Assembly (NCBI GenBank): GCA_963677765.1
Contig: OY782392.1
Coordinates: 690,001-722,000, forward strand
Direction of reading: 5' to 3'
Length of the DNA: 32,000 bases
From: Candidatus Saccharimonadota bacterium
GTDB lineage: Bacteria; Patescibacteriota; Gracilibacteria; BD1-5; UBA6164
In this document: positions 2,848 through 21,954 of the stretch, piece by piece
Numbering within the stretch: position 1 is the stretch's first letter
Layout: every line of letters begins with the position of its first letter
Notes under the pieces: model-generated
The model's input: the letters and a program-made list of their open reading frames with translations, nothing else
Databases searched by the model: none
What the model was told of the DNA's origin: nothing
Made by a program: the position numbers and the translations under genes

Positions 2848-2976
2848 GTTTTTTAAAATATTTAAGGTCATAGATATCAAATTTTTTAATTTGGTATTCT
2901 TTTTTTATTGTTCTGTTTTGCTTTAATATTAAAAATATGTTTATATATTAATATATATAATATTAAATTTAATTAT

Positions 2977-5178
2977 ATGCCAATAATAAATTGTGATAAG
3001 TGCAATAAGGAATATGATATAAAAATAGAGTCATTATGAAAAAAATGAAAATGTTCAAATTGTTGAAATGAATTTATTCTAAAATTAGAACATAATAATG
3101 AAAATCATAATAAAAAAAATGATTCAAAAATAAATAATTATATGGATAAATTTAATTTTAAATACAACTTTAAGATTTTTATAAAAAAAGTTATTAAAAT
3201 CATTAAGTGGTTTTTTATCTTTTTTATTTTGTTATTTATAATATTTTTAATAAGTATTTATTTATGAAGTTTAAATTCATACAAACAAACTGATTTTAAT
3301 ATTCCAGATAATTTTTTTAATACTAAATATTGAAATGAGGATCCATATTCTGAAAAAAATTGATTTGAATTATTTATAAAATATATTAATAGATTAGAAT
3401 GAAAATCACTTTATTTTGATGCCCTTAGCAAATGCGTAATAGATAATTATGAAGAATGTGAAAAAATAACTTCAAAGCCTATTGATGATATAAAGATTAG
3501 AGAAATAAGAAAATTTATTATAAATAATAATAGTATAGAAAAAATAGCTTCTAAATATGAATTTAATGATGGTAATATAGATGCTTACAATAGAATAATT
3601 GATTATAATATATCTAATATTAATTATAAAATTAAAGATGAAAATAATTTGGATAAAATATCTTTTGATGAAATAAAACTTAAAGATTTATGAAATATAG
3701 ATTTAGATATTTTAGATTCTTATTTTAAATGATTAGATTACTTTAATAAAAATAAGAATTATATATTAGAAAAAGAATTTAAAGAATTTGAAAGATTTGT
3801 TTATTTAAATGAAAAAACTCAGGATAAAATAAATAATAAAGATTATATTTTACTAACTCCTGAATATTCAGATGAATATAATTGAGAAAATATTTATTGA
3901 GAATGAAAAGAATTAGTATATACACCTTTGATACAATATTCTAGATGAATAAGATATGTTGTGTATAAAAATTTTGAAGAATGAGAATATGATAAATGAG
4001 TGAATATTTTATTAAATTATCAAAAATTTATTGATAATTTGATGAATAAAACTGAAAATTATGTTATAAACACTTTGGTCTACATTACTATTAGTAAAAT
4101 TAATTTGGAGTCAATAGATTACTTTTTAAGTAACTATGATGTACCAGAAAATCAAAAAATTGATATTTTTGATACACTTAATAATGATATTGATGAAGGA
4201 ATAATAGAGAATTCTTTGAAGAAAGAACATTTAATCAATAGAACTATTTTTAAATATTTATACGATTCACGCTTTGATAATAATTGAAATTTAATTTGAT
4301 ATATTATTTCATGAATTAAATATAATTTTTTATTTTCTTTACGTGAAACAGAATTAATTAGTGATATAAAAGCATATAATTTAATAAAGAATAAATGAGA
4401 TATATGAGATTTTGAATGTTGATTTTCATTATATAATTATATTTGAAGAGCTGTTATTTGTAATTATTCTGCTAATTATACTACCCAATTTAATAAAGAA
4501 TTAGACTTAAGAAATTTCAGACAAAGTATACTAAATAAGTTATTAGATAAAAAATACAATAATTTAAATAAAGAAAATAGTTATAAAAATTTTGATAAAT
4601 CTGATACTTTAGAATCTTCTAATAATTTAGAAAATACCATTGAAAAAATAAATTATCACTATTCAAAAGATAAAGATACTATTTATGCTGATTGAGAACC
4701 TATAAAACAAATAGATTTTTGATCTTTTGAAATTATTCATCAACACTATGCAAAGGATAAAAATAATGTTTATACCAGTGGTAAAGTAATAAAATGAGCT
4801 AATCCATCATCATTTGAAGTTATATTTGCATTATATTCAAAGGATGATAAAAATGCTTATTTTGTAGATAGGATAATAGATAATGTAGATATATGAACAT
4901 TAACTGTTATGGATTATTCTCTTTATGCAAAAGATAAAAATAATGTTTATTTTAGATGAGAGTATTTAGAATGAATAGATTGACCTTCATTTGAGTTAAT
5001 TAATAATACCTATTCAAAAGATAAAAATAATATTTATTATGAACATAAATTAATAGAATGATCCGACCCTTGATCATTTGAGTTAATTAATAATATGTAT
5101 TCAAAAGATAAAAATAATTGTTATAAGTTTACAGAAAAAATTCCTATGTCATTTTGTGAAGATAATACTTATCATTAA
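2977..5178 (+). CDS. zinc-ribbon / single-pass membrane / DKNYY-repeat protein
   Basis: 733-aa ORF with no TAA/TAG in frame (checked line by line). The N-terminus has a CxxC...CxxC zinc ribbon (CDKCNKEY...CSNCGNEF), followed by a TM segment (WFFIFFILLFIIFLISIYL). The C-terminus carries at least 5 repeats of Y(S/A)KDKNN(V/I/A)Y...FE(L/V)I, which is DKNYY-family-like. Confidence 0.75.
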
Positions 5179-5179
5179 T

Positions 5180-5247
5180 TAATATTTCAAATACTAAAAA
5201 AGACAACTAATTAATTAGTTGTCTTTTTTGTTTGTTATTTTTTTAAT
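5180..5247. repeat. left copy of a perfect 68-bp direct repeat (candidate att site) bounding the island
   Basis: 5180..5247 is identical to 13662..13729 at a constant offset of 8482. The next 9 nt still match 7 of 9 positions of the tRNA-Pro 3' end (agtcggtga vs ggtcgggga), after which the sequences diverge. Confidence 0.85.
5196..5236. terminator. bidirectional hairpin terminator, copy 2 (inside the left direct repeat)
   Basis: Same 41-mer as 2807..2847. It starts 18 nt after the stop of the 733-aa gene. Confidence 0.7.
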
Positions 5248-5318
5248 AGTCGGTGATAGTGAACAGGATTAGAACTGAGATTGAGGAGTGGAATGGGTAT
5301 ATAAAATTATAAATTTTA
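5241..5318. repeat. imperfect ~80-bp repeat, left copy (partner at 13404..13482)
   Basis: Blocks shared in the same order are ttttaat, gattagaactgagat (5267..5281 = 13430..13444), aggag and tatataaaattataa (5298..5312 = 13463..13477). Small indels separate the blocks. Confidence 0.5.
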
Positions 5319-5452
5319 AAATAAATTAATTTACAGAAATATAAATCTTTTATCTTATAGTTATAATATCAGTTAGCTATTATTATTTTTTCAAAAAAGT
5401 TGAATATTATATCTGATAATGGTAAAAAAATATTTTTTAATTATTTTTTATT

Positions 5453-7228
5453 CTATTCTTTAATACCAAAAATATCTTTAAATAAAAACTTATTATTATT
5501 AATTGAAAATTCATGTGAAATATTTTTTATTTTTATTGTATTATATTCTTGATTTTTTAAAACATGAAACATATCATCAAATATATTTTCAGAACCTCAT
5601 AATTTAAATCTATTTAAATTAAATTGAGCCCAATTTGATACTGCTAAATTCTTATTTTTAATAGAATATCAATATCATTTGGTTTTTATTACGTTTTTAG
5701 ATATTCAAAAAAGATAAACTTTATTAATAGATTTTTCCTTTTTTAGATTAAGTTTTATAGATTGAGCTAATTTTAATAATCAATTTTCTTCTATCCAATT
5801 ATCTACTTTTAAAGCCCATGAATCTAATTTTTCTGCTAAATTACAAGCTCTACTCCTTAATTTTCTTACATCGTTAAAATGATAATCTTGCCATTTAATT
5901 TGAAATAATGCTAAATTACCTGTAACTCTATCAAAAATAACTGCATCAATATCAGTACAGACATTATTTAATGATTTTAGTTTTATATTTCAATCAATAT
6001 TATAGTATTTATTACCTGCAAAAATAGAATATAAATTATTTCTTAACCATTCTTCTCTAAAAGATGAAATATCATTTATAAATTTTGGATTTCTATGTGT
6101 TAAAATATCTATAACAGAAAAAAATGGATTTTCTTCCATGCTAGATATAGGTCTTAATAAAAAACCGTTACCAGAATCTATTAATAATGGTATAAACTTT
6201 GATGTTGATTTTTTTAATAAATTAAGATCTTCAGGTCTCAAAGTAATAGCATTTAAAGCTTCAGTAATTATTTTTTTATCAATATTGTAAAACATTGATA
6301 TTGAATTTATAAGTTCTTCAATTTTCGTAAATAAAGTAAGAGTTTGCCTTACTAAAACTTCAGGGTATTTTTTATGAGCTAGTAATGTACTTTGGGTATG
6401 TTTAAGATGAAAACTAGTAATACTTAGAATAACAAGTTTTATATCTCATCCATTAATATTTCAAATTTTTAATTTATCATGAAATCAAGCTTCTTCACAC
6501 CAATTATTAACAATCTCTAAAGCTTTTAATGAATAATGTTTATCAATTTCTGGAGTGCTATCATATTTTATCATTATTCCTTTTCATGAATCCCAAGGAC
6601 TAATCTGTTTAAGTAAACTTTTTTCAATATTATTTGCATAAAATTTTGAATAATCAAAATCACATGAAATATAAAACATTCATTCTTTATTGGAGAAATC
6701 TTCTAAATTCTCTTTATCTATACGTTCCCATTGATTAAAATATTTATTTTTTTCATCTTTTAATTCTTCTTTCAATTCAAAATATTCTATTCACATTAAC
6801 CTATCAAGATGTTGAGAATTTATATCTATATTTTTATTTTTCTCAAAAATAAATTTATTATTCTCTTTTTTAATTAACACTACATTAGCTTTTACCATAT
6901 CAATAACCCTATTTAACATAACAATAGTTCATAACTTATACAATAAATTAAATGCATATTTAAAAGATTGTTCAGTACTTTCAGAAAAAGGAAAACCTCA
7001 AGCATTAATACCTGAAAATAAGAATGAAGTTGATAAACTCCATCACATTTTTATAATAGAATTAGTTATTTCATCAGTATTAGTAGCAATGCTATGTAAA
7101 TCTAAAACTCTTAATGTTTCTGTAAATATAGTAAATTTTATTAATGAATCTGATGGTAAGCTATCTTCTATTTCAGTTAATAAATTATCTATAATTATTT
7201 CTAATTCTTTACAAATTTCATTGGACAT
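5453..7228 (-). CDS. 591-aa protein of unknown family with a C-terminal PD-(D/E)xK-like motif; last gene of the island operon
   Basis: Single ORF under table 25, with no in-frame TAA/TAG over all 592 codons (verified). The track ORFs 5990..6295 and 7043..7228 are fragments of it. It starts MSNEICKELEIIIDNLL. The candidate nuclease core is CTDIDAVIFDRVTGNLALFQIKWQD. Confidence 0.7.
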
Positions 7229-7251
7229 ATCAATAATTTTAATATTAATGG

Positions 7252-8235
7252 TTAACTACTTTTAATTTCAGTAATAAAATATTTATTTATTTCTTTATCC
7301 CACCTTATAGTATCTTCCAATATATTTATATAAGGGTTAGAAATCATCAAGGGAATATAATTTGGATTTTTAATTTCATCCCTATTAACTATATATAAAA
7401 AATATTTTTCTTTCTTATTCTTTGCTGTTTCCATTTCATTTTGTGTCCAATAAAAATAGGGAATATTTCAAGTATATGACTTTACTTCAATATACCTATA
7501 GTCATTTATTGATTCTTGATTGTCAAATGATAAAATATCATATCAAGCATTACAATCAAATGGAGCAATCCATTGAATTCATTCTTTATTATTTAGTCTT
7601 AAATTTTCATATTTTAATACGTATTCTTCTGCTATTTCTCAATTAATTTGTTGTTTCTCAATATTTTGTTTTAATTCATCAATTCATATTTTCCTTTTTC
7701 TTATTTCTGTAATAAAATATTTATCAAAAAACTTTTTCCATCAAGGATTTATTATTAGTTTCTTATTTGGAAAATCAGGATGTTTTACTAAAAAATTAAA
7801 GTCCAAAAGAAGATTTCTTATATTTGCATACTTTACTCAAAAGGCTGAATAATCAATTTGAATAGTTTTATATATTATATCATATGAACTATATTCTGAT
7901 GTTAGAATACTATAAAATGTTTCGTCTTTATGAAAAGCTAATAAAAAGCCCTCTAATAATTTTTGTTTACATAAAGTTTCACTTATAGCAATATTTCTAT
8001 ATTCTACTCATTGTTCTATTTCTTTTGAATCTTCATTTATGTAAATTATTTTTGATAATTTTAATAGAGGAATACATCAATCAAATATTCATTTATTATC
8101 AATAATCTTATTATAAAAATATCATTTTATATCTTCTTCGGTAAGAAGGTTATCATTATTTCTTAGATGTTGAAAAAGTTCCCAAAAAAATCAGGGAGTT
8201 CATAAATTATTATAATTTTTTAGCTCTTCTAGCAT
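7252..8235 (-). CDS. DUF3883-domain protein (predicted PD-(D/E)xK-fold nuclease domain at the C-terminus)
   Basis: 327 aa, translated codon by codon. The C-terminal GEIAEEYVLKYENLRL...NAGYDILSFDNQESINDYRYIEVKSYTG...WTQNEMETAKNKKEKYFLYIVNR matches the DUF3883 pattern (GYDI ... IEVK ... YyLYvV). The ATG at 8235 overlaps the SNF2 gene 3' end by 26 nt. Confidence 0.7.
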
Positions 8236-10198
8236 AGTCTTCTAATAATGATTTAATAATATCTGTTTCGTCATTATCATCTATTATTTTAAATAAAGGA
8301 ATATCTTCATCAATTATCTTTTCCATTCTTTTTACTTTATCATTTAATCTATCATTAATTACTGTATCTATAGAATCTTTTGATATTATGTAAAAGTAAT
8401 TTGTTTCAGTTCATTCTTTTAGTCCAACACGATGTATACGATCTTTTGATTGAAGGAAGTTAGAACAATTATAATCTCTTTCCATATAGATTGCATTATG
8501 GCATCATTTATGTAGTGATATTGATTCAGATACAGAAAATGGGTTTGCAATAACTAAGTTAAAATCTTGGTTATCTGGATTGTTAAATTTATCAATTATT
8601 TTTTCTCTCTCTTCTTGAGGAATTTTACCTATTAATAATTCTGATTTTATATTTAAACTCTTAAGATAATCTTGTAGTTCTTCAGCATTTTGAATAAAAA
8701 TAGTCCATATTATAACTTTTCACTTTTCTTTAGTTATTTTATCAATGATTTCTTTAACTTTTTGAAATTTTATAGGAATATTCCCATTTTTTCAAAAACT
8801 ATTTATTTTTGAAAAAATAAATGAGTCATCTATTGTTTCATTATTCAGTAAGGCAAATTTTAAATTTGGGTCTTGTTCTCAATCAATTCATGCTTCTAAA
8901 GTATCTTTTAATACTTTAGTAAGTAATTTTGGATTTGTAGCAGCTTGTCTTAAACGAATTAATTTAGCTTTATTTAAAGTATCTTTTATTGATGCATTTG
9001 GGTCCTTTGAAAATGATTCTATATATTTTCATTCAATGAAATCATATATTTCTCTTTGTTCATCTGTCATATCAACATATATAATATTCTCTTTTATTTC
9101 AGGTAATTGTAAATCTTTTTTCTTTATTCTTATAAAATAGGGATTTATATTATTTATGAAATCTTTTATTCTATTACTATCAGTACTATTTTGATTTTTT
9201 GTTAATTCTTTTAATTGGTCATAGTGAATTTTTAATATATCTTTATATTTAAAAGGGTATATAAAACGGTATAGATTAAAAATATCTTCATATCAATTTG
9301 GTACTGGAGTTCATGTTAATATTACTCTTGAAGTTGCTTCTTTTGCTATTTCGGCAACACTTTCTCACCAAATTCAATTTGGATTTTTAATACGATGAGC
9401 TTCGTCTACAATAACCATTACTTTATTTTGTTTTAAGAAATCTGTAATTTCTTTTTCAAATATATCAACTCATCAATGAGAAACTAAAGTTAATTCTTTA
9501 GGATTATTTGAATATAAATGTTCTTCTTTCTTTTTTCTAGAAATTGATATATCTCAAGATAATCTTTGACTTTCTACTTTATATCAAAAACATTCCTCAT
9601 ATTCTTTCTCCCATGGAGCAAAAGAAGATAAAGGTCAAATAATTAATAATTTATCAACATGTTTAGAATCATTTTCAGGTAAGCTTTTTAAGTATGTATA
9701 TGATCAATATACTATGGAAGTTTTTCAAGCTCATGGAACAGCAAAATTACATGAATTTTGAGAAAAAGCCATATGAAATGCTGATAACATTTGTAAAGGA
9801 TATAGAGTTCTACTCATTCATTTTTCCAATACATTTTTAAATTCTCTAAAATCAGCTTCTAATTCACCTGAATCAGAAAAGTCATTGTTTCTTATCTTTT
9901 TTGCCTTAGAAGAAAATTCATTAAAATTTTCTTGTTCTTTATTATATGACTCTAGCTCAGTTTTGATACTTGAATCAAAAATAATTTTATAATTAAACTT
10001 ATTAAAAATATTTTTTATTTCTTCAAGAATTATTATTTTATTTAGGTTTGAAAAAGGTATTTTCAATAAACTGTTATCTATAAAATAATTAAGTCTTTTT
10101 AATCATATTATTAATCTTTTATTTTCATTTATTGAAATATTGTTTCATTCTATTAAAAAATTATCTCATTTTATTGAAATATGTATTTCATTTTGCAT
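8210..10198 (-). CDS. SNF2/RAD54-family helicase (dsDNA translocase) with an N-terminal extension of about 130 aa of unknown function
   Basis: 662-aa ORF verified free of TAA/TAG. Motif I is AVPGAGKTS, motif II MVIVDEAHRIKN and motif III ILTGTPVPNG. The C-lobe reads KVIIWTIF...ESISLHKGCHNAIYMERDYNCSNFLQSKDRIHRVG. Confidence 0.9.
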
Positions 10199-10206
10199 AA
10201 ATAAAA

Positions 10207-11580
10207 TTAATTAGTTTTTATATCTTTTTCTAATTGATAAGTTATTTTTTGAATATCTTTTGTGTAAGTTAATATTTCATTTTTATCATTATCAGAAACT
10301 TTTGTTGAATTTAGTGAATTTAATAATTCAATAACTTTCTTTAAAATTGATTTTGGAGATTTTGAAAACATCATTGATTCTAAAATATTGTCTAATACTT
10401 CTATTTTTTCAATTACATCATCATTTTTTGAATTTTTATTTATCTTGGCAACAGAAATAGCATCAATTGCTTTATTAACTAATTTTAAAGGTTCATTTTT
10501 ATGGAGCTGATTTCCTAATTTTGTTTCATGATCTTCTAAGTTTTGTTTTAATAAATCATAACTATCATCTATAAACTTTGAGTCTCTACTATCTAAAGTA
10601 CTTTTTAAGTCTGGAGAATCAAAATTTATTTTTTCTTCTAAATCCTGAATTGGTATTATTTTTTCGAAATGGCTTGTTTTAAAACTCTCCCATATTTCTT
10701 TATTTCAGAAAAAATGATTTTGTTTTTGTCAGTTTGCAAGACTACGAAAACTTTTTCATTCATATTTTGCTCTTATATAATCAAAAGCAATTGTTTTTAA
10801 ATCATCTACATCACCATTATTATATCAATCAAATCATTTTGCACTTTGATTGTCATAGAAATTACTTAACCATCAAGTTAAACTAATAAATTGATCTTCT
10901 CTTCAATCTAATTGAGTATAAATTCAATTATAACCTAAATAATCTAAATAATCATCCATTGTGTTCATTACTGAAAGATATCATTCAATTGTAGCTTTTG
11001 TTTCTCACATCCAATCTGATATTTGTTCAACAGATACTCATTGATTAAGTAAGTCTTTTGATTTTAAGTATTTTTCTATAGGGTTATATCATAATTTTTC
11101 ATCTTCTCACATTTGGTAAGAAGTTTCTAATTTTTGTATCTCTATAGGATTTTCTTCTAAAGTTATATCTAATATTACTGTTTTAAAATATTCGTATTTA
11201 GGTATTTTATTAAGTAACATAGCTCTTCTATTTCAGTCAATAATTATTCAATCTTTTGTAATTATTCAGTATTCTTTTTGTCAGAACTTTTCTAAATCTT
11301 TTAATGTTTTCTGATTTCTGTCTATTTTTGATTTCCATAATAAATCTTCAATAACTAATTTTCAAGCTTCTGTATCTGATTTTATATCTCATCCTTGTTG
11401 CTCAAGGGATTTAGTACGGCTTAATATACGACCATTATATTTATTATAGATTAGATTCTTTAATGGAACCTCATAAACGTCAAAAGTTTTTAAAGCTCCT
11501 TTCCATAATAGTTCTTTTGATCAAATAGGATTTTGATTTAATATTTCAGAAATTTTTTCAATACGCATTTCTTTATTCAT
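10207..11580 (-). CDS. ParB/Srx N-terminal-domain protein (ParB-like nuclease/NTPase fold) with a long helical C-terminal region
   Basis: 457-aa ORF verified free of TAA/TAG. The hallmark motif is GIITKDGIIIDGNRRAMLL (compare ParB ..V.DGhRR...). No HTH or partition context is evident. Confidence 0.75.
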
Positions 11581-11585
11581 ATTTT

Positions 11586-13283
11586 TTAATTAAAAATTAA
11601 GTTTCAAATAGAATATATTGTAAATAAATGAGATTTTGGTATTTTATTTTTTGGAATAAAATCTATATTTGATATCAATTTATCATCTATAATTTTATTA
11701 GTAATAAACTCATATAGATAATTTCTAATATTTATAGGATTTTTAGTATTTTCTATATGTAAATCATTTTCATATATTTTTTGTAATTCTTGAATTTTTA
11801 TTTTTCAAATTACTTTATTAAATAGGTAATCTAATTCTTTTTTTAATAAGTCAAAATCTTCAATATTTTCTTTTAATACTTTTTCTAGCTTATTTATATG
11901 TTTTTTATTTATTTCAATATTTTTATATCATATTCAAGTTCAAAAGAAGACTTTTATAAACCATTTTTTTCATACTTCATTATTTTCATCGTAATTTAAT
12001 AAATCCACAGTAATATTGTTTTTCTTTAAAATAGGTCTTCTAAAGCGGGCATTTTTTTGTCTAGTTTTTGGTGAATTAAATTCATTTTCAGTAAATGTAT
12101 TTAAGTTTTTTACGTTTATATAGTGATTCTTTAGATCAATAAAACTTAAATTAGAAACCACTTCTTGTCATAACTTTATACGAATAGCTTTTGCTAATGC
12201 TGAACTTAAGTGAGGTGAAACCGCATTTCAAACTTGTCTCCATTTTGATCATTCTGATCATGTAAATTGGTAAGATAATGGAAATCACATAAGAGTTGAT
12301 ATTTCTCTAATAGTTGGTAATCTATATTCTCAATTTCATTTTCTATTATACTCAGATTTTAATATCAGAGCTTCTCTTGTGCTTGCTGATCTAGTGGCCA
12401 TTATAGTACGACATGGTTTATTTAAATTTTCTGGGAATGACATTTTTCACATACAAATATGATTTGTTTTTAAATCATTAGCTTTTTCCCATTCTATTTT
12501 ATATAATCATGTATCATAAAAATGATCTGTAAGTTCTAATCATTTTAATTTTAATGTTTTATAGTTAGGGTCTATAAATATAGAAGACTCAATATTTATT
12601 TTTTCTAAATTTGGTTTAGGTAGTTTATTTAACACTTCTCATAAAGTTTTATGATTAGAGTGAGTTATTGTAGGTTTTAAAAATTCTCCTGTTTTACACC
12701 ATTCTCAAGCAATAAATCTTTTTCTACTTTGAGGAGCTCAATAGTCTCATGAATTTAATATATCTCAATTATTCTTTACGCTTAGGGCTATATCTGAAGG
12801 ATTTTTTCAAATACTTTTAGCCCAATCTGATAAATTTAGCATGTCAAATGAATAATTTTCTTCAACATAATTTCTTGAATTTGGAACATTTTCCATATAC
12901 CAAGCAATTAATTTAGAATTTTTTTGATGTTTTTTTACAGCAATAACTCTTAAATAAGCCTCTATTAATTGTATTCATAGAGATTTATCTGCTTTTCCTG
13001 ATTTATTTGATGTTGAAAATGAAACACAACTAGGACTTCCAATGATAACTTCAGTATTTTCCAACTTATTAATTTCTTCTATATTTGAACTATCTTCATT
13101 CCAAAAATCAAGAACATTTTTAGTTATATCATTTAGATTATGGTTTAGATTATGAGTATCTATTGCTGTTTGCCAAAAATCAATTCATTTTATGATTTCA
13201 AATCATTGTTGTCTGAATCATTCAGAAAATCATCAAGCTCAACAAAAGAAATCAATTACTTTTAATTTTTTATATTTAGTCAT
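11586..13283 (-). CDS. DNA (cytosine-5)-methyltransferase with an atypical motif IV and a C-terminal extension of about 200 aa
   Basis: 565-aa ORF verified free of TAA/TAG. Motif I is VIDFFCGAGGFSEGF. Motif IV is [11 protein letters not shown] (canonical is PPCQxFS). Motif VI is MENV, motif VIII is APQSRKRF and motif X is KWRQVGNAVSPHL. About 200 further residues follow motif X. Confidence 0.9.
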
Positions 13284-13368
13284 TTTGTATTTTTATTGTT
13301 TAATTTTTTAATAATATATTAATTTTTAGAAAAAAGTCTAGATCAAATTTTTATAAATATCTATTATA

Positions 13369-13403: not shown

Positions 13404-13482
13404 TTTTAATGGTTTGCTTTTGTTTAGAAGATTAGAACTGAGATAGGAGGTAGTTTGAATAATATATAAAATTATAATTTTA
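13404..13482. repeat. imperfect ~80-bp repeat, right copy (partner at 5241..5318)
   Basis: See 5241..5318. It lies between the methyltransferase promoter region and the right 68-bp repeat. Confidence 0.5.
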
Positions 13483-13513: not shown

Positions 13514-13630
13514 TTAGTAATGTCTTCAATATTTTTCTATATTATTCAAAAATCTTTTATCTCCTGATATTATATTAGAAAATAATTCTGCTTTTAGTTC
13601 TATTCATATAAAATGAGATGTTGGTTTCAT
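13514..13630 (-). pseudogene. 38-codon ORF, possibly the N-terminal remnant of an ASCH/PUA-like domain gene
   Basis: MKPTSHFIGIELKAELFSNIISGDKRFLNNIEKYGRHY*. The stretch I.LKAELF..I.SG.K loosely resembles the start of ASCH domains (S.K.PWAELI.SGkKt.E.R). It is too short to be sure it is coding. Confidence 0.15.
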
Positions 13631-13661
13631 TTATATTTATTATATAATTATTATTTTATAA

Positions 13662-13729
13662 TAATATTTCAAATACTAAAAAAGACAACTAATTAATTAG
13701 TTGTCTTTTTTGTTTGTTATTTTTTTAAT
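13662..13729. repeat. right copy of the perfect 68-bp direct repeat, ending on the first base of the tRNA-Pro gene (the complement of the terminal A of its encoded CCA)
   Basis: Identical to 5180..5247. It contains the terminator hairpin that ends the tRNA operon. Confidence 0.85.
13678..13718. terminator. bidirectional hairpin terminator, copy 3; terminates the tRNA-Gly/Ile/Pro operon
   Basis: Same 41-mer as 2807..2847 and 5196..5236. The element is its own reverse complement across A6-stem-loop-stem-T6. It lies 10 nt downstream of the tRNA-Pro 3' end. Confidence 0.75.
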
Positions 13730-13805
13730 GGTCGGGGACGCGAGACTCGAACTCACAACCCCACGCTCCCAAAGCGTGTGCGCTAGCCAATTGCGCCAGT
13801 CCCCG
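13729..13805 (-). tRNA. tRNA-Pro (anticodon UGG), CCA encoded
   Basis: Hand-folded cloverleaf. Acceptor CGGGGAC/GTCCCCG, D stem GCGC/GCGC, anticodon stem CACGC/GCGTG with loop TT-TGG-GA, T arm GTGAG-TTCGAGT-CTCGC, then discriminator A plus CCA. 77 nt. Confidence 0.95.
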
Positions 13806-15994: not shown

Positions 15995-16023
15995 AAAAAC
16001 TAGAATTTTATTCTAGTTTTTTT
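15994..16023. terminator. bidirectional hairpin terminator between convergent genes
   Basis: aaaaaaactagaa-tttta-ttctagttttttt has stem ctagaa/ttctag flanked by A and T runs. It overlaps both stop codons. Confidence 0.7.
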
Positions 16024-18451
16024 ATTTTGTACCTACTCTATATTCAATTTCTTTACTAACAAAATCTTTATCACGTCAGTATTTCAATCTAGATAATTCA
16101 GTAAATGCTTTTGCTAATTTATCATCTCATGTTTCAAGATAAGGATTAACAGGTATTATTGAAAAGGGAGTAGTAGGTTGATTATCTACTGCTAGTTTCA
16201 TAGTAGCCTTAAATTTATCCATATTAACTAAATCTTGATCTGAAAATGTAGGAGCATAATATTTTGCCATAAACTCTCAATCCTCAGGACCTATTTTATA
16301 ACTCATAACAGATCATACATTACCAAAAATAGCATTTTTAAGATTTAGACTTGATTTTGTTAAAGCATCACTTTGTTCTAGTTGTCATAAATATTGGTGA
16401 GCTATATTTAAACTAAGTCTATATTTTCTCGCTTCTGATAATATAGATTCTATACTATCTGTAACATAGTTTTGAAACTCATCTATATATAAGTAAAAAT
16501 CAGATCTTTCTTCTTTTGGTATTTTATCTCTTCTCATGGCTGCCATTTGTATTTTTGATACAAGAATCATACCTAGTAGTTTTGAGTTTAAATCACCAAG
16601 TCTTCATTTTGATAGGTTTACTACCAATATTTTTTTACTTTGCATTATATCAAGTATATCAAAACTAGATTTTACTTGTCATATAATGTTTCTCATCATT
16701 TTATTTGTAGTAAATTGACCAAATTTTGCTGCAAAATATGGAATGATTTCAGCTTTTTCTCTATCTCACATAGAAGCATAAGTTTTTTCCCACCAAGCTT
16801 TTACTATAGGGTTTTTTACATGTCTTATTCTATCTTTTTGAAAATCCATATCTGTAAACAATCTAACTACATCAGTTATTGCTCATCATCCTGGATAATC
16901 CATAAGAGTTAGTACCGCATTTCTAAAATAGTCTTGTAATCTTGGACCAAATATTTCGTTACCAAATAGCTTTATCATTATATTTAGTGCATCCATTGCT
17001 ACTAACTCTTTTTCATCATCATTATGTGCTTCAAGTAGATTTAATCATAAAGGTCTATCTGTATCACTAGGGTCAAAAACTATAACATCATCAGCTCTTT
17101 CTCTAGGTATAAATGGAAGTAGGTCTCTAGCTAAATCTCCATGAGGATCTATTATACAAACTCATTCTCAATTTAGGAAATCTTGTCTAGCCATAACTTG
17201 CATTATACTAGATTTACCTGTACCTGTTTGTCATATAACATAAAAATGTCTAAATCTATCTTCTTTTTTAATTCTAATATCTTTTTTTACTCATCTGTAA
17301 ATATTATGTCATAATAGTAATCATTCTTTTGGTATATTACTAGGAGCTTTTACTATTTTAAAATTTTGCCATTTTATTTCAGGAGTAGTGTTATATCTAG
17401 CATGAGGGAAGTGGAATATCGAAGCAATCTCCTCAGTATTTAAAATCATTTGTTTTAGATAAAAAGGTTTTTTAAAGTATCTAAAAATATAATTTTTTAT
17501 TAAAGAGTTTTTATTGAAATATTTTGTTGTTCTAAATTTATTAAAATCTGGGTAACTAAATTGAGTAAAACTTGAAACTATATTTTTTAATTCTGATTCA
17601 ACCATGGCTTGATTGTTTCATGTTGCTATAACTCTGATTATAGTTTCAAATCATGTTTTATCTCATTTTTCATCTACAGTTTTAGCTCTTTCTTGAGTAA
17701 GTGCTGAACTAGAGTTTTCTTCTTTTTGATTTTCTTCTCAACTAGAAGTAAGTCATTCAATTATACTTATTATAATTTTTATTGGATTTAATGTAAAAAA
17801 GCTTTTTTTACCATTAATTATTTGTGTACTTGCTTTTGAACATTTGCTTTGCCATCAATCATTTATGGGTTTCAATAATACTTGTATAACAGCTGACTCA
17901 TCTTCTTCTAATTTTGAGAAAGCTCCCAATAAGTTATTAACTGGATCTGATTCTAATTTTTGATAAGTTTTTATAGGGAAGAAAAACTCCTTTGAAGTAT
18001 TTATATATGTTGCTTCAATAAATTTTCTTTTTTTAAAAATATTTATTTCTCTAGTTTCTTCTAGTATTGCATCAGTATAAAATCAATTTACTTGTTTTTC
18101 TATTAAAAACTTATATTTTTTAGGTACTACTATATAAAAATATATTTCATTTTCATGAGCAATATATTCAAAACTTATTAAGTCTTCTCATAGTATTTTT
18201 GTTTTTATTGTATTTGAACTAAGTGATTTTAGAGAAGAAAAAAGTTGTTCCATAAGACTTATTGCTTCTTTGAAATCTTTTACAGTTTCTTTTTTCTCAT
18301 CTAAATCACTATTTTTTCTAGGTAAAGTTACTTTCAAAAATGTTAATTCCAGAGTCCTTTTATAATCATACTTTCTTTTTATAATTTTTATTATAATTTT
18401 GTATATAACGAAAACTATAAAAGAAATAGCTAAAATAAACAATAATTCCAT
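16022..18451 (-). CDS. membrane-anchored P-loop ATPase of the TraD/TraG/VirD4 (type IV coupling protein, TrwB-like DNA-binding domain) type
   Basis: 809-aa ORF checked for stops. It has an N-terminal TM segment (MELLFILAISFIVFVIYKIII), Walker A VIGQTGTGKSS, then CIIDPHGDL and VFDPSD..RPLGLNLL, Walker B FYLYIDEFQNY, and SEARKYRLSLNIAHQYL. An alternative upstream ATG at 18499 would add 16 Lys-rich residues. Confidence 0.8.
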
Positions 18452-18579
18452 TTTTTGTTTTTTAATTTTAATCTTTTTTTTATTATAACATAATTTCATC
18501 TAAAATAAAAGAAAAACAATTGATAAATTGCAAAAAAAATGTATAAAATATAATAAAATATTTTTTAAAAATTATATTA

Positions 18580-21875: not shown

Positions 21876-21954
21876 GCGGGGGTAACATAAAAGAGTGAGT
21901 GTACTAAGGCTTCAACCCTTGGGTGTGCGAGTTCAAACCTCGTCCCCCGCTCCA
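21876..21954 (+). tRNA. tRNA-Gly (anticodon UCA), the UGA-decoding tRNA of genetic code 25; CCA encoded
   Basis: Acceptor GCGGGGG/CCCCCGC with G1-C72, C2-G71 and G3-C70, plus discriminator U as in the tRNA-Gly(UCC) at 13979..14055. Anticodon stem TAAGG/CCTTG with loop CT-TCA-AC. T arm GCGAG-TTCAAAC-CTCGT. The D arm is atypical (ACAT-AAAAGAGTGA-GTGT, with no GG). 79 nt. Confidence 0.85.

Follow-up and report, generated by a model that had tools for sequence, protein, structure and literature searches.

Two probable defence modules, a conserved Dcm/ParB-fold/SNF2/NOV_C cassette and a separable Upx-like gene, on a tRNA-Pro island of a code-25 bacterium

A 32,000-nucleotide stretch of contig OY782392.1 (assembly GCA_963677765.1, positions 690,001 to 722,000 of the forward strand), assigned to a Candidatus Saccharimonadota bacterium and referred to here in its entirety as the window, carries five closely packed minus-strand genes on an island beside a tRNA-Pro gene. 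These genes are probably best read as two defence modules that are transcribed together, namely, a restriction-modification (R-M)-like cassette of four genes (7252-13283) and a fifth gene, E591 (5453-7228). The cassette, which encodes a C5-cytosine DNA methyltransferase (Dcm), a ParB-fold protein, an SNF2 ATPase and a protein with a NOV_C nuclease domain, appears to be a conserved, horizontally spread, motor-driven and restriction-like system based on 5-methylcytosine (5mC), and its predicted function is defence.

The conserved unit consists of four genes, not five. An earlier, sequence-only reading of the window had proposed all five as a single undescribed defence system whose families should be found together in unrelated genomes, and this part of it did not hold. 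A homolog of E591 was present in none of 80 cassette loci and in none of four further genomic contexts that were looked up individually. Conversely, the cassette was absent from 79 of 80 loci of the E591 family, and the single exception (L105) comes from the same organism as the window, at 96% identity. The five genes, and a tRNA gene that bears on their translation, are as follows.

A565, 11586-13283, minus strand: 565 aa, C5-cytosine DNA methyltransferase (Dcm), first gene of the cassette
B457, 10207-11580, minus strand: 457 aa, protein of predicted ParB/Noc/KorB fold, signature gene of the cassette
C662, 8210-10198, minus strand: 662 aa, SNF2-family ATPase/translocase
D327, 7252-8235, minus strand: 327 aa, N-terminal adaptor domain followed by a NOV_C/DUF3883 PD-(D/E)xK nuclease domain
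E591, 5453-7228, minus strand: 591 aa, Upx-like predicted nuclease, a separate module outside the conserved cassette
tRNA-Gly(UCA), 21876-21954, plus strand: UCA anticodon, labelled 'SeC' by ARAGORN

When open reading frames (ORFs) were called over the block with translation table 11, only fragments were obtained. With TGA read as sense, five intact minus-strand ORFs were recovered at exactly the coordinates that the sequence-only reading had reported; the gaps of 5, 8 and 23 nt and the overlap of 26 nt that it had listed follow from these coordinates, and every motif it had quoted was found in the translations. TGA encodes glycine (code 25) in this genome, as had been supposed, and three lines of support were identified. 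First, TGA stands at canonical glycines of Dcm motif I (FCGAGGFSEGF), of the SNF2 Walker A motif (GAGKT) and of LTGTP. Second, of the 15 TGA codons of E591, 8 align with positions at which standard-code homologs conserve glycine to at least 90%. Third, the tRNA at 21876-21954 shares the acceptor stem pairs G1-C72, C2-G71 and G3-C70 and the U73 discriminator with the tRNA-Gly(UCC) of the window, which identifies it by sequence as a tRNA-Gly(UCA) predicted to read UGA as glycine; the Rfam tRNA model stays below threshold on this gene. In public copies of code-25 proteins (P0001 and P0039 to P0042) TGA has been rendered as tryptophan, giving approximately 6% Trp and 1% Gly. Such deposited proteins carry Trp at conserved glycines, so homology and structure work on them is degraded.

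The GC content of the region is approximately 20%. Searches against Pfam confirmed DNA_methylase in A565, SNF2-rel_dom and Helicase_C in C662 and NOV_C/DUF3883 in D327. Nothing in Pfam, NCBIfam or PADLOC matched B457 or E591, and these two proteins were therefore assigned by structure prediction.

Conservation and distribution of the four-gene cassette

Relatives of the cassette were sought by scanning one genome per species. At least 185 species-representative genomes were found to encode a relative, and 80 loci were fetched for comparison. The phyla represented include Patescibacteria, Bacteroidota, Campylobacterota, Proteobacteria, Acidobacteriota, Bacillota, Chloroflexota, Verrucomicrobiota, Melainabacteria, Omnitrophota and Caldisericota. 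The four genes were colinear, in the order found in the window, in 57 of the 80 loci, with most of the remaining loci cut by contig ends. All four of the individually examined contexts (Methylophilus, an Erysipelotrichaceae genome, a Parcubacterium and a JGI contig) were syntenic, with gene products of approximately 560 aa for Dcm, 460 aa for the B457 relative, 650 aa for SNF2 and 326 aa for the NOV_C protein. All four cassette proteins are full-length homologs across phyla, sharing between 33 and 58% identity, and their catalytic motifs are at least 90% conserved (63 to 80 orthologs). The distribution is patchy, yet identities of 50 to 60% were seen across phyla, which indicates horizontal transfer.

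No close ortholog of the cassette was detected in 72,556 plasmids, and close orthologs were nearly absent from 50,697 phage records, with one exception at the margin of a predicted prophage; the cassette is chromosomal. In 18 of the 59 complete loci a gene for Vsr is directly adjacent, and in 15 of these it is located immediately upstream of Dcm on the same strand. Vsr repairs the T:G mismatches left by deamination of 5mC, and its presence beside the cassette Dcm thus implies that this enzyme methylates host DNA. The other neighbours are genes typical of defence islands, including HNH, MADS components, SoFic, AbiD, PDC candidates, a methyl-directed restriction endonuclease, EVE, MazG and Abi_2.

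A Dcm ORF was present in 75 of the 80 loci, and where the family of A565 is missing upstream, a different Dcm family is encoded just downstream. Loci L021, L027, L030, L039, L041 and L092 have this arrangement, the downstream Dcm gene being convergent in some. One of them, L092, is the record of Streptococcus phage Javan191 (1-6607), in which the variant occupies the very edge of a predicted prophage in Streptococcus equi, and another, L021, apparently has no fourth (nuclease) gene. A divergent second paralog of the B457 family, with 38 to 39% identity, adjoins the cassette in L055 (6436-7590, minus strand), L084 (6355-7617, minus strand) and L083 (14343-15485, plus strand).

The related code-25 contig L093 carries all four genes at 74 to 83% identity to those of the window, and blastn aligned it with window positions 7181-13348 as a block of 78.7% identity. 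Its NOV_C gene (L093 6944-7920) is broken in two by a frameshift at about position 7570, with the other three genes intact, and a DndB-family (ParB-like) protein is encoded at 8591-9757 in the run of genes downstream of the cassette.

Cassette proteins and the exchange of the effector domain

B457 is, by predicted fold, a member of the ParB/Srx superfamily, with a ParB-N domain, the DGNRR motif and a helix-turn-helix (HTH), in agreement with what had been proposed from the letters of the sequence. The AlphaFold2 model was built on a standard-code relative 60% identical to B457 rather than on B457 itself, and its predicted local distance difference test (pLDDT) score was 90.6. Using Foldseek, it was found that the top 32 matches of this model in the PDB were all ParB, Noc, KorB or Spo0J structures, with target-normalised template modelling (TM) scores of up to 0.60 and a matched region that spans the nucleotide-binding N-domain and the HTH. 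Residues D115-G-N-R-R119 of B457 are invariant in the family, and the C-terminal approximately 200 residues form long helices without a matching structure. The family comprises more than 2,076 homologs, with 1,606 clusters at 50% identity (E <= 1e-3); the top 120 are full-length, share more than 50% identity and are distributed across distant phyla. No curated model (ParBc, DndB, ddrB-ParB or DUF262) matched B457 above its threshold, the ddrB-ParB model gave weak matches to 11 of 47 family members (best E value, 1.3e-4), and a sequence profile of the family retrieved nothing useful from PDB sequences.

The first gene product, A565, is a C5-cytosine methyltransferase with a Pfam match (PF00145 DNA_methylase; E value, 2.6e-33; 116 bits against a cut-off of 22; aa 7-367) and with motifs I, IV, VI, VIII and X. 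In 68 orthologs, motif I, the cysteine of motif IV (GSPxC), ENV (VI), QxRxR (VIII) and GNxV (X) are at least 90% conserved. The methylase domain is followed by a C-terminal extension of approximately 190 aa that is conserved in the family, and over its full length the protein is 43 to 51% identical to the first cassette gene product of unrelated genomes. The best PDB sequence matches of its N-terminal region are to DNMT1. One public protein (P0074, 749 aa) joins the C-terminal half of Dcm, corresponding to A565 residues 278-529, in frame to a complete B457-family protein; the fusion may be genuine or may stem from an error in gene calling, and it is weak evidence for a partnership between the two.

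C662 is an SNF2 ATPase with SNF2-rel_dom (E value, 4.3e-27) and Helicase_C (1.3e-11) domains, which contain Walker A, DEAH and motifs III and VI. It shares 54 to 58% identity with its cassette orthologs, in whose family GAGKT, DEAH, LTGTP and QSKDRIHR are at least 90% conserved, and its N-terminal region of approximately 130 aa has no domain assignment.

D327 begins within the SNF2 gene, which it overlaps by 26 nt, and consists of an N-terminal adaptor domain of approximately 200 aa, itself without an assignment, and a NOV_C domain at aa 202-286 (PF13020; E value, 1.7e-16; 60.5 bits against a cut-off of 22.1). The family conserves GYD...RFIEVKS...NE and with it the D...ExK...E residues of a PD-(D/E)xK nuclease. 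The sequence-only reading had taken DUF3883 to be a nuclease, and experiments on related proteins, together with these conserved residues, favour the same assignment: in HmaA, NOV_C works as an Mn2+-dependent nickase without which defence against T4 fails (PMC11232893), and in the restriction enzyme YenY4I catalysis is carried out by DUF3883 (PMC6765204). Fusions of SNF2 to NOV_C were not found among the relatives of D327, as 113 of 113 are standalone proteins of approximately 320 aa.

In 6 of the 80 loci (L072, L074, L076, L077, L078 and L080) the fourth gene encodes a TIR domain instead of NOV_C. These loci form a sister subfamily in Bacteroidota, Gammaproteobacteria and Melainabacteria in which the B457 relative is shorter and lacks the last 50 or so residues. 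No similarity between the TIR protein of L076 and D327 was detected by BLASTP. Over their first 190 or so aa, however, the TIR proteins share a homologous N-terminal domain with the NOV_C proteins of L083, L085 and L089, which speaks against replacement of the whole gene. The relationship is best described, on the evidence of this homology, as a swap of effectors on a shared adaptor domain. Swaps of this kind are typical of immune systems and were therefore taken as support for a defence role. The occurrence of TIR on the same adaptor also implies that the sensing part of the cassette can drive an NAD+-depleting output of the abortive-infection type.

The separable gene E591 and the island

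The relatives of E591 are full-length proteins with 30 to 52% identity, without a Pfam domain and always annotated as hypothetical. They were found in Bacteroidota and Gammaproteobacteria, with at least 283 relatives in metagenomes. An AlphaFold2 model of the family, built on a standard-code relative (52% identical) and not on E591 itself, had a pLDDT of 90.0. Foldseek returned one significant PDB match for it, to Upx (9wuf; E value, 4.4e-5; probability, 1.00; 630 aligned columns), and matches to Can2 and Card1 were weak (probability of approximately 0.2). Upx is a protein of 1,272 aa with two PD-(D/E)xK lobes and a middle domain, and it senses phage terminase (PMC13601566). The two are similar in predicted fold and in a core near the C terminus that in E591 is a candidate for the PD-(D/E)xK type, and they differ in size and architecture, E591 being approximately as large as one Upx lobe, in the catalytic motif, which is ExK in Upx and QxK in E591, and in the association of E591 with Dcm and Mza. 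Residues T425-D426-x-D428 and Q443-x-K445 of E591 are invariant, and in the family model the equivalents of D426/D428 and Q443-x-K445 end adjacent beta strands. The nuclease-like core that had been recognised earlier in this protein is supported by a putative PD-(D/E)xK-type beta-strand core with invariant D...QxK and by the fold match to Upx. A PADLOC search of E591 and 33 relatives, with the Upx model included, gave no match, and neither did a sequence-profile search of the PDB.

The neighbourhoods of E591 relatives (L094 to L173) were characterised by genes of Dcm-based systems. Dcm (19/126), Vsr (14) and AIPR (12) were the commonest among the flanking ORFs, and four recurrent partner clusters proved to be MzaC, MzaE, MzaB and MzaD. 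As raw counts over the 56 well-flanked loci, each with at least four flanking ORFs, Mza genes were within three genes of the E591 relative in 30, Dcm or Vsr in 22, and either in 39 (70%). Same-strand orders such as Vsr-Dcm-E591-MzaB-MzaC and Dcm-E591-Vsr were observed, and the relatives (for example, in L094, L095, L097 and L136) often lie inside a same-strand run of Mza, Dcm and Vsr genes. Mza-type systems have a core of Dcm, Z1 and DUF4420 (PMC9523054). Mza (mzaABCDE) and the related systems built on this core, some with AIPR in addition, supply the commonest neighbours of the E591 relatives and are Dcm-based like the cassette. E591 nevertheless matches no MzaA-E model, and no Mza gene is present in the window; likewise, none of 33 E591 family members matched the MzaA-E models. 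A simple Type II R-M pairing of E591 with the Dcm family of A565 itself was considered and rejected, as the Neptunomonas Dcm shares only one motif with A565. E591 can be separated from the cassette and shows a strong tendency to occur with Dcm-based systems, and its family may represent an accessory part of Mza-type systems that has gone unrecognised. Given its habitual association with Dcm, Vsr and Mza, the attachment of E591 to a Dcm-led operon in the window is probably not accidental. Here it is most likely a second effector, and possibly a Dcm-dependent one.

Two other interpretations of E591 were weighed. The first, which we consider possible though doubtful, is that E591 defends on its own as a single gene, responds to a phage protein in the manner of Upx and is independent of Dcm, with the closeness of Dcm being due to clustering in islands. 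The fold match to the terminase-sensing Upx and the solitary copies found in Halomonas and other genomes agree with such autonomy. It accounts less well for the presence of Mza, Dcm or Vsr within three genes in 70% of well-flanked loci and for the tight same-strand orders, including Vsr-Dcm-E591-MzaB, which are more specific than generic clustering.

The second holds that all five genes make up one obligate system with E591 as an integral second effector, and this is unlikely. The 23-nt gap ahead of E591 and the lack of an internal terminator are what co-transcription would require, another sample of this organism (L105) shows the same arrangement, and the family is generally associated with Dcm. 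Against this stand the near-complete mutual absence of the cassette and E591 from each other's loci, as counted above, and contig L093, where homology to the window ends 47 nt into E591, leaving a decayed stub (NAICK*IEIITENLL) that is followed by other genes. L093 has lost E591 and kept its Dcm, ParB-fold and SNF2 genes intact, with the fourth frameshifted. The stub shows the linkage to be older than one strain; E591 and the cassette evidently became linked in this lineage, and one branch later lost the connection.

The two modules lie together on an 8.4-kb island that is situated at the 3' end of a tRNA-Pro gene and has a 95-nt direct repeat at each end. The features of the island are as follows.

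Left island repeat, 5162-5256, no strand assigned: att-like, 95 nt, 91% identical to 13644-13738
Hairpin, 5195-5230: inside the left repeat, the sole terminator-like site downstream of E591
Cassette leader, 13284-13348, minus strand: upstream segment that moves with the cassette; nucleotide homology to L093 stops here (blastn)
Right island repeat, 13644-13738, no strand assigned: overlaps the last 10 or so nt of tRNA-Pro
tRNA-Pro(UGG), 13729-13805, minus strand: found by ARAGORN and Rfam, first of three tRNA genes (Pro, Ile, Gly)

The repeats thus bear out the earlier description of a repeat-flanked island beside tRNA genes. They contain a terminator hairpin as well as the tRNA-Pro 3' end, and tRNA-Pro(UGG) is the apparent integration target. 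No integrase is present, and the surrounding genes are housekeeping genes. Terminator-like hairpins were found only in the repeats and beyond the tRNA genes, and none was identified inside the five-gene block, which is therefore probably transcribed here as a single unit. A promoter scan gave nothing above the expectation from shuffled sequence in this AT-rich DNA, and Rfam detected only tRNAs in the window.

A second short direct repeat (GATTAGAACTGAGAT...TATAAAATTATAA) is situated just inside the island ends, at approximately 5268-5320 and 13428-13482. Its order relative to the 95-nt repeat differs at the two ends, it resembles a degenerate tRNA T-arm segment, and it may be the trace of two or more integrations. 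A 38-aa ORF (approximately 13527-13643, minus strand) lies between this repeat and the right 95-nt repeat. Outside the cargo, window positions 2908-5178 (plus strand) encode a DKNYY-family protein of 756 aa that has a zinc ribbon at its N terminus; in the 3' part of its gene, four diverged copies of a 122-nt unit (4652-5124) correspond to the DKNYY repeats. Amid housekeeping genes, positions 16022-18499 (minus strand) encode an 825-aa membrane-anchored HerA/TraG/TrwB-like ATPase with DUF87 and weak matches to coupling-protein domains.

Relation to named systems, proposed mechanism and significance

The sequence-only reading had described a modification-linked, restriction-like cluster that fits no named system, and this still stands, as none was matched in PADLOC 2.0, NCBIfam or Pfam. 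Nor was a named system with the composition of the cassette found in open-access papers and preprints, although a description elsewhere is possible. The cassette is its own variant of the defence systems that combine a methylase, a motor and a nuclease, and a member of none of those named.

The closest is Hma (HmaABC, 'Type-1 BREX-related'), which has an SNF2 motor, a NOV_C nuclease, a methyltransferase and an NTPase, and D327 gave a PADLOC match to the C terminus of HmaA (8e-6). HmaA, however, is a single polypeptide of approximately 1,180 aa with SNF2, Helicase_C and NOV_C, whereas the cassette has separate genes and C662 is without NOV_C. The partners also differ, being HmaB (a DUF1156 methyltransferase) and HmaC (a DUF499 ATPase) in one case and C5-Dcm and the ParB-fold protein in the other; neither a DUF499 nor a DUF1156 protein was detected in the operon with Pfam and PADLOC, and its methylase is of PF00145.

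DISARM, Druantia II, BREX and Type I/III R-M share with the cassette a self-marking methylase, a helicase or translocase and a nuclease. A565 matched the DrmMII and DruM models and C662 matched those of DrmD, ZorD, DpdE and BrxH, in each case at the level of a generic domain. The signature proteins of these systems are absent from the operon: DrmA, DrmB (DUF1998) and DrmC of DISARM in searches of Pfam, NCBIfam and PADLOC; DruE of Druantia and PglZ, BrxC and PglX of BREX in model searches; and HsdM, HsdS and HsdR or Mod and Res of Type I/III R-M, for which ResIII matches were weak and fell on the SNF2 core. Type I/III R-M systems use an N6A or N4C methylase, in contrast to the C5 enzyme of the cassette. 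To our knowledge, none of DISARM, Druantia II, BREX and Type I/III R-M has a ParB-fold component. Such a component is present in Dpd and Dnd, which place a ParB-superfamily protein (DpdB or DndB) within a DNA-modification defence locus, Dpd having SNF2-like helicases as well. The modifier of the cassette is instead Dcm, B457 misses the DndB model (PF14072) and the PADLOC models of DndB and Dpd, and no TGT/7-deazaguanine (DpdA) or sulfur-transfer (DndACDE) enzyme is encoded in the operon, the DpdE matches being generic SNF2. With the cytidine triphosphate-dependent clamps ParB, Noc and KorB, the B457 family shares the fold of N-domain and HTH and the invariant arginine pair of GxRR. It differs from them in the absence of a ParA partner, in the additional helical C-terminal region of approximately 200 aa and in the lack of a match to Pfam ParBc.

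A tentative sequence of events can be outlined for the cassette. Dcm would methylate target sites of the host and so mark self. The ParB-fold protein would be a DNA-site sensor or loader that engages unmodified DNA through its HTH, and it may behave either as a clamp gated by nucleotide, in the manner of ParB, Noc and KorB, or as a nickase regulated by nucleoside triphosphates (like the ParB domains of conflict systems). The SNF2 ATPase would translocate on double-stranded DNA, and the NOV_C subunit, docked by its N-terminal adaptor domain, would nick or cut foreign DNA; in the TIR variants the same sensing part could trigger depletion of NAD+. E591 would contribute another nuclease effector, helped by or reliant on host 5mC, which would spare or license it. 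A more detailed version, in which a ParB-type nucleotide-gated clamp senses unmethylated sites and recruits SNF2 to serve interchangeable NOV_C and TIR effectors, with E591 as a 'half-Upx' accessory of both the cassette and Mza, is speculative and is put forward as a possibility of lower probability than the two-module arrangement itself.

Two interpretations would remove the cassette from defence altogether. One is a non-defence epigenetic or genome-maintenance system that combines motor-assisted methylation, as in DNMT5 and DDM1/LSH, with ParB-type organisation of DNA and a repair nuclease. Dcm and the SNF2 ATPase are strictly coupled, DNMT1 is the best PDB sequence match of the Dcm N-terminal region, ParB-family proteins organise DNA, and some loci are found among housekeeping genes. 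This interpretation is nevertheless improbable, as it sits poorly with the patchy spread, suggestive of horizontal transfer, at 50 to 60% identity across phyla, with the swaps to TIR, with neighbours from defence islands, with carriage on an accessory island of an approximately 1-Mb genome, and with NOV_C being a defence nuclease in HmaA (PMC11232893). The other, an establishment or anti-restriction module of a mobile element that protects incoming DNA by means of a DarB-type methylase-SNF2 and a DdrB-type ParB, draws on the co-occurrence of ParB, SNF2 and methylase in polyvalent proteins of phages and conjugative elements (PMC5512222), on the weak matches of the B457 family to ddrB-ParB, on the integration of the island at a tRNA gene and on the position of one cassette at a prophage edge, but it is the least credible of all, since the polyvalent modules are adenine methylases fused in giant delivered proteins with MPTase or ArdC (PMC5512222), whereas the cassette has separate genes, a C5 methylase whose frequent pairing with Vsr points to lasting methylation of the host, an effector of its own (nuclease or TIR), no close ortholog on plasmids, and flanks of chromosomal and defence genes with few recombinases.

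Several points weigh against reading the island as two defence modules of the kind proposed. The defence role of the cassette was deduced from its composition and context, and self-marking by Dcm from intact catalytic motifs and frequent Vsr; Vsr itself is absent from the window, and motif IV of A565 reads GSPSC, with P-S-C in place of the canonical P-C. For the B457 family, the Foldseek matches have modest E values (2e-4) and, since nothing in the matched structures corresponds to the C-terminal half, a low query-normalised TM; instead of a clamp, the ParB-fold protein could be a nuclease, an NTPase or, in a role proposed for DndB, a regulator of the methylase. For E591, the match to Upx has a query-normalised TM of 0.31 and is without support at the sequence level, glutamine takes the place of the Asp or Glu of PD-(D/E)xK nucleases, some relatives are solitary among housekeeping genes, and the neighbourhood frequencies are raw counts.

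The cassette is widespread, with at least 185 species-representative genomes in more than 10 phyla, and its signature protein was annotated as hypothetical wherever it was looked up. The B457 family has no Pfam, NCBIfam or PADLOC model, and the cassette is consequently missed by current defence-finding tools. Its retention on a rare accessory island in a code-25 genome of approximately 1 Mb, of the Candidate Phyla Radiation type, suggests strong selection. The ~600-aa Upx-like family, as a habitual companion of Mza and of Dcm/Vsr, offers a testable clue to the way in which nucleases are deployed by Dcm-based systems. Standard-code orthologs in the cultivable genera Methylophilus, Chryseobacterium, Flavobacterium and Paenibacillus make direct tests feasible. 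The cassette adds a ParB-fold component to the immune systems built on a methylase, a motor and a nuclease, and the swap from nuclease to TIR links restriction-like with abortive-infection outputs. If the proposed mechanism is true, a ParB-type clamp that acts as a sensor of non-self would represent a sensing principle undescribed for R-M-like systems.

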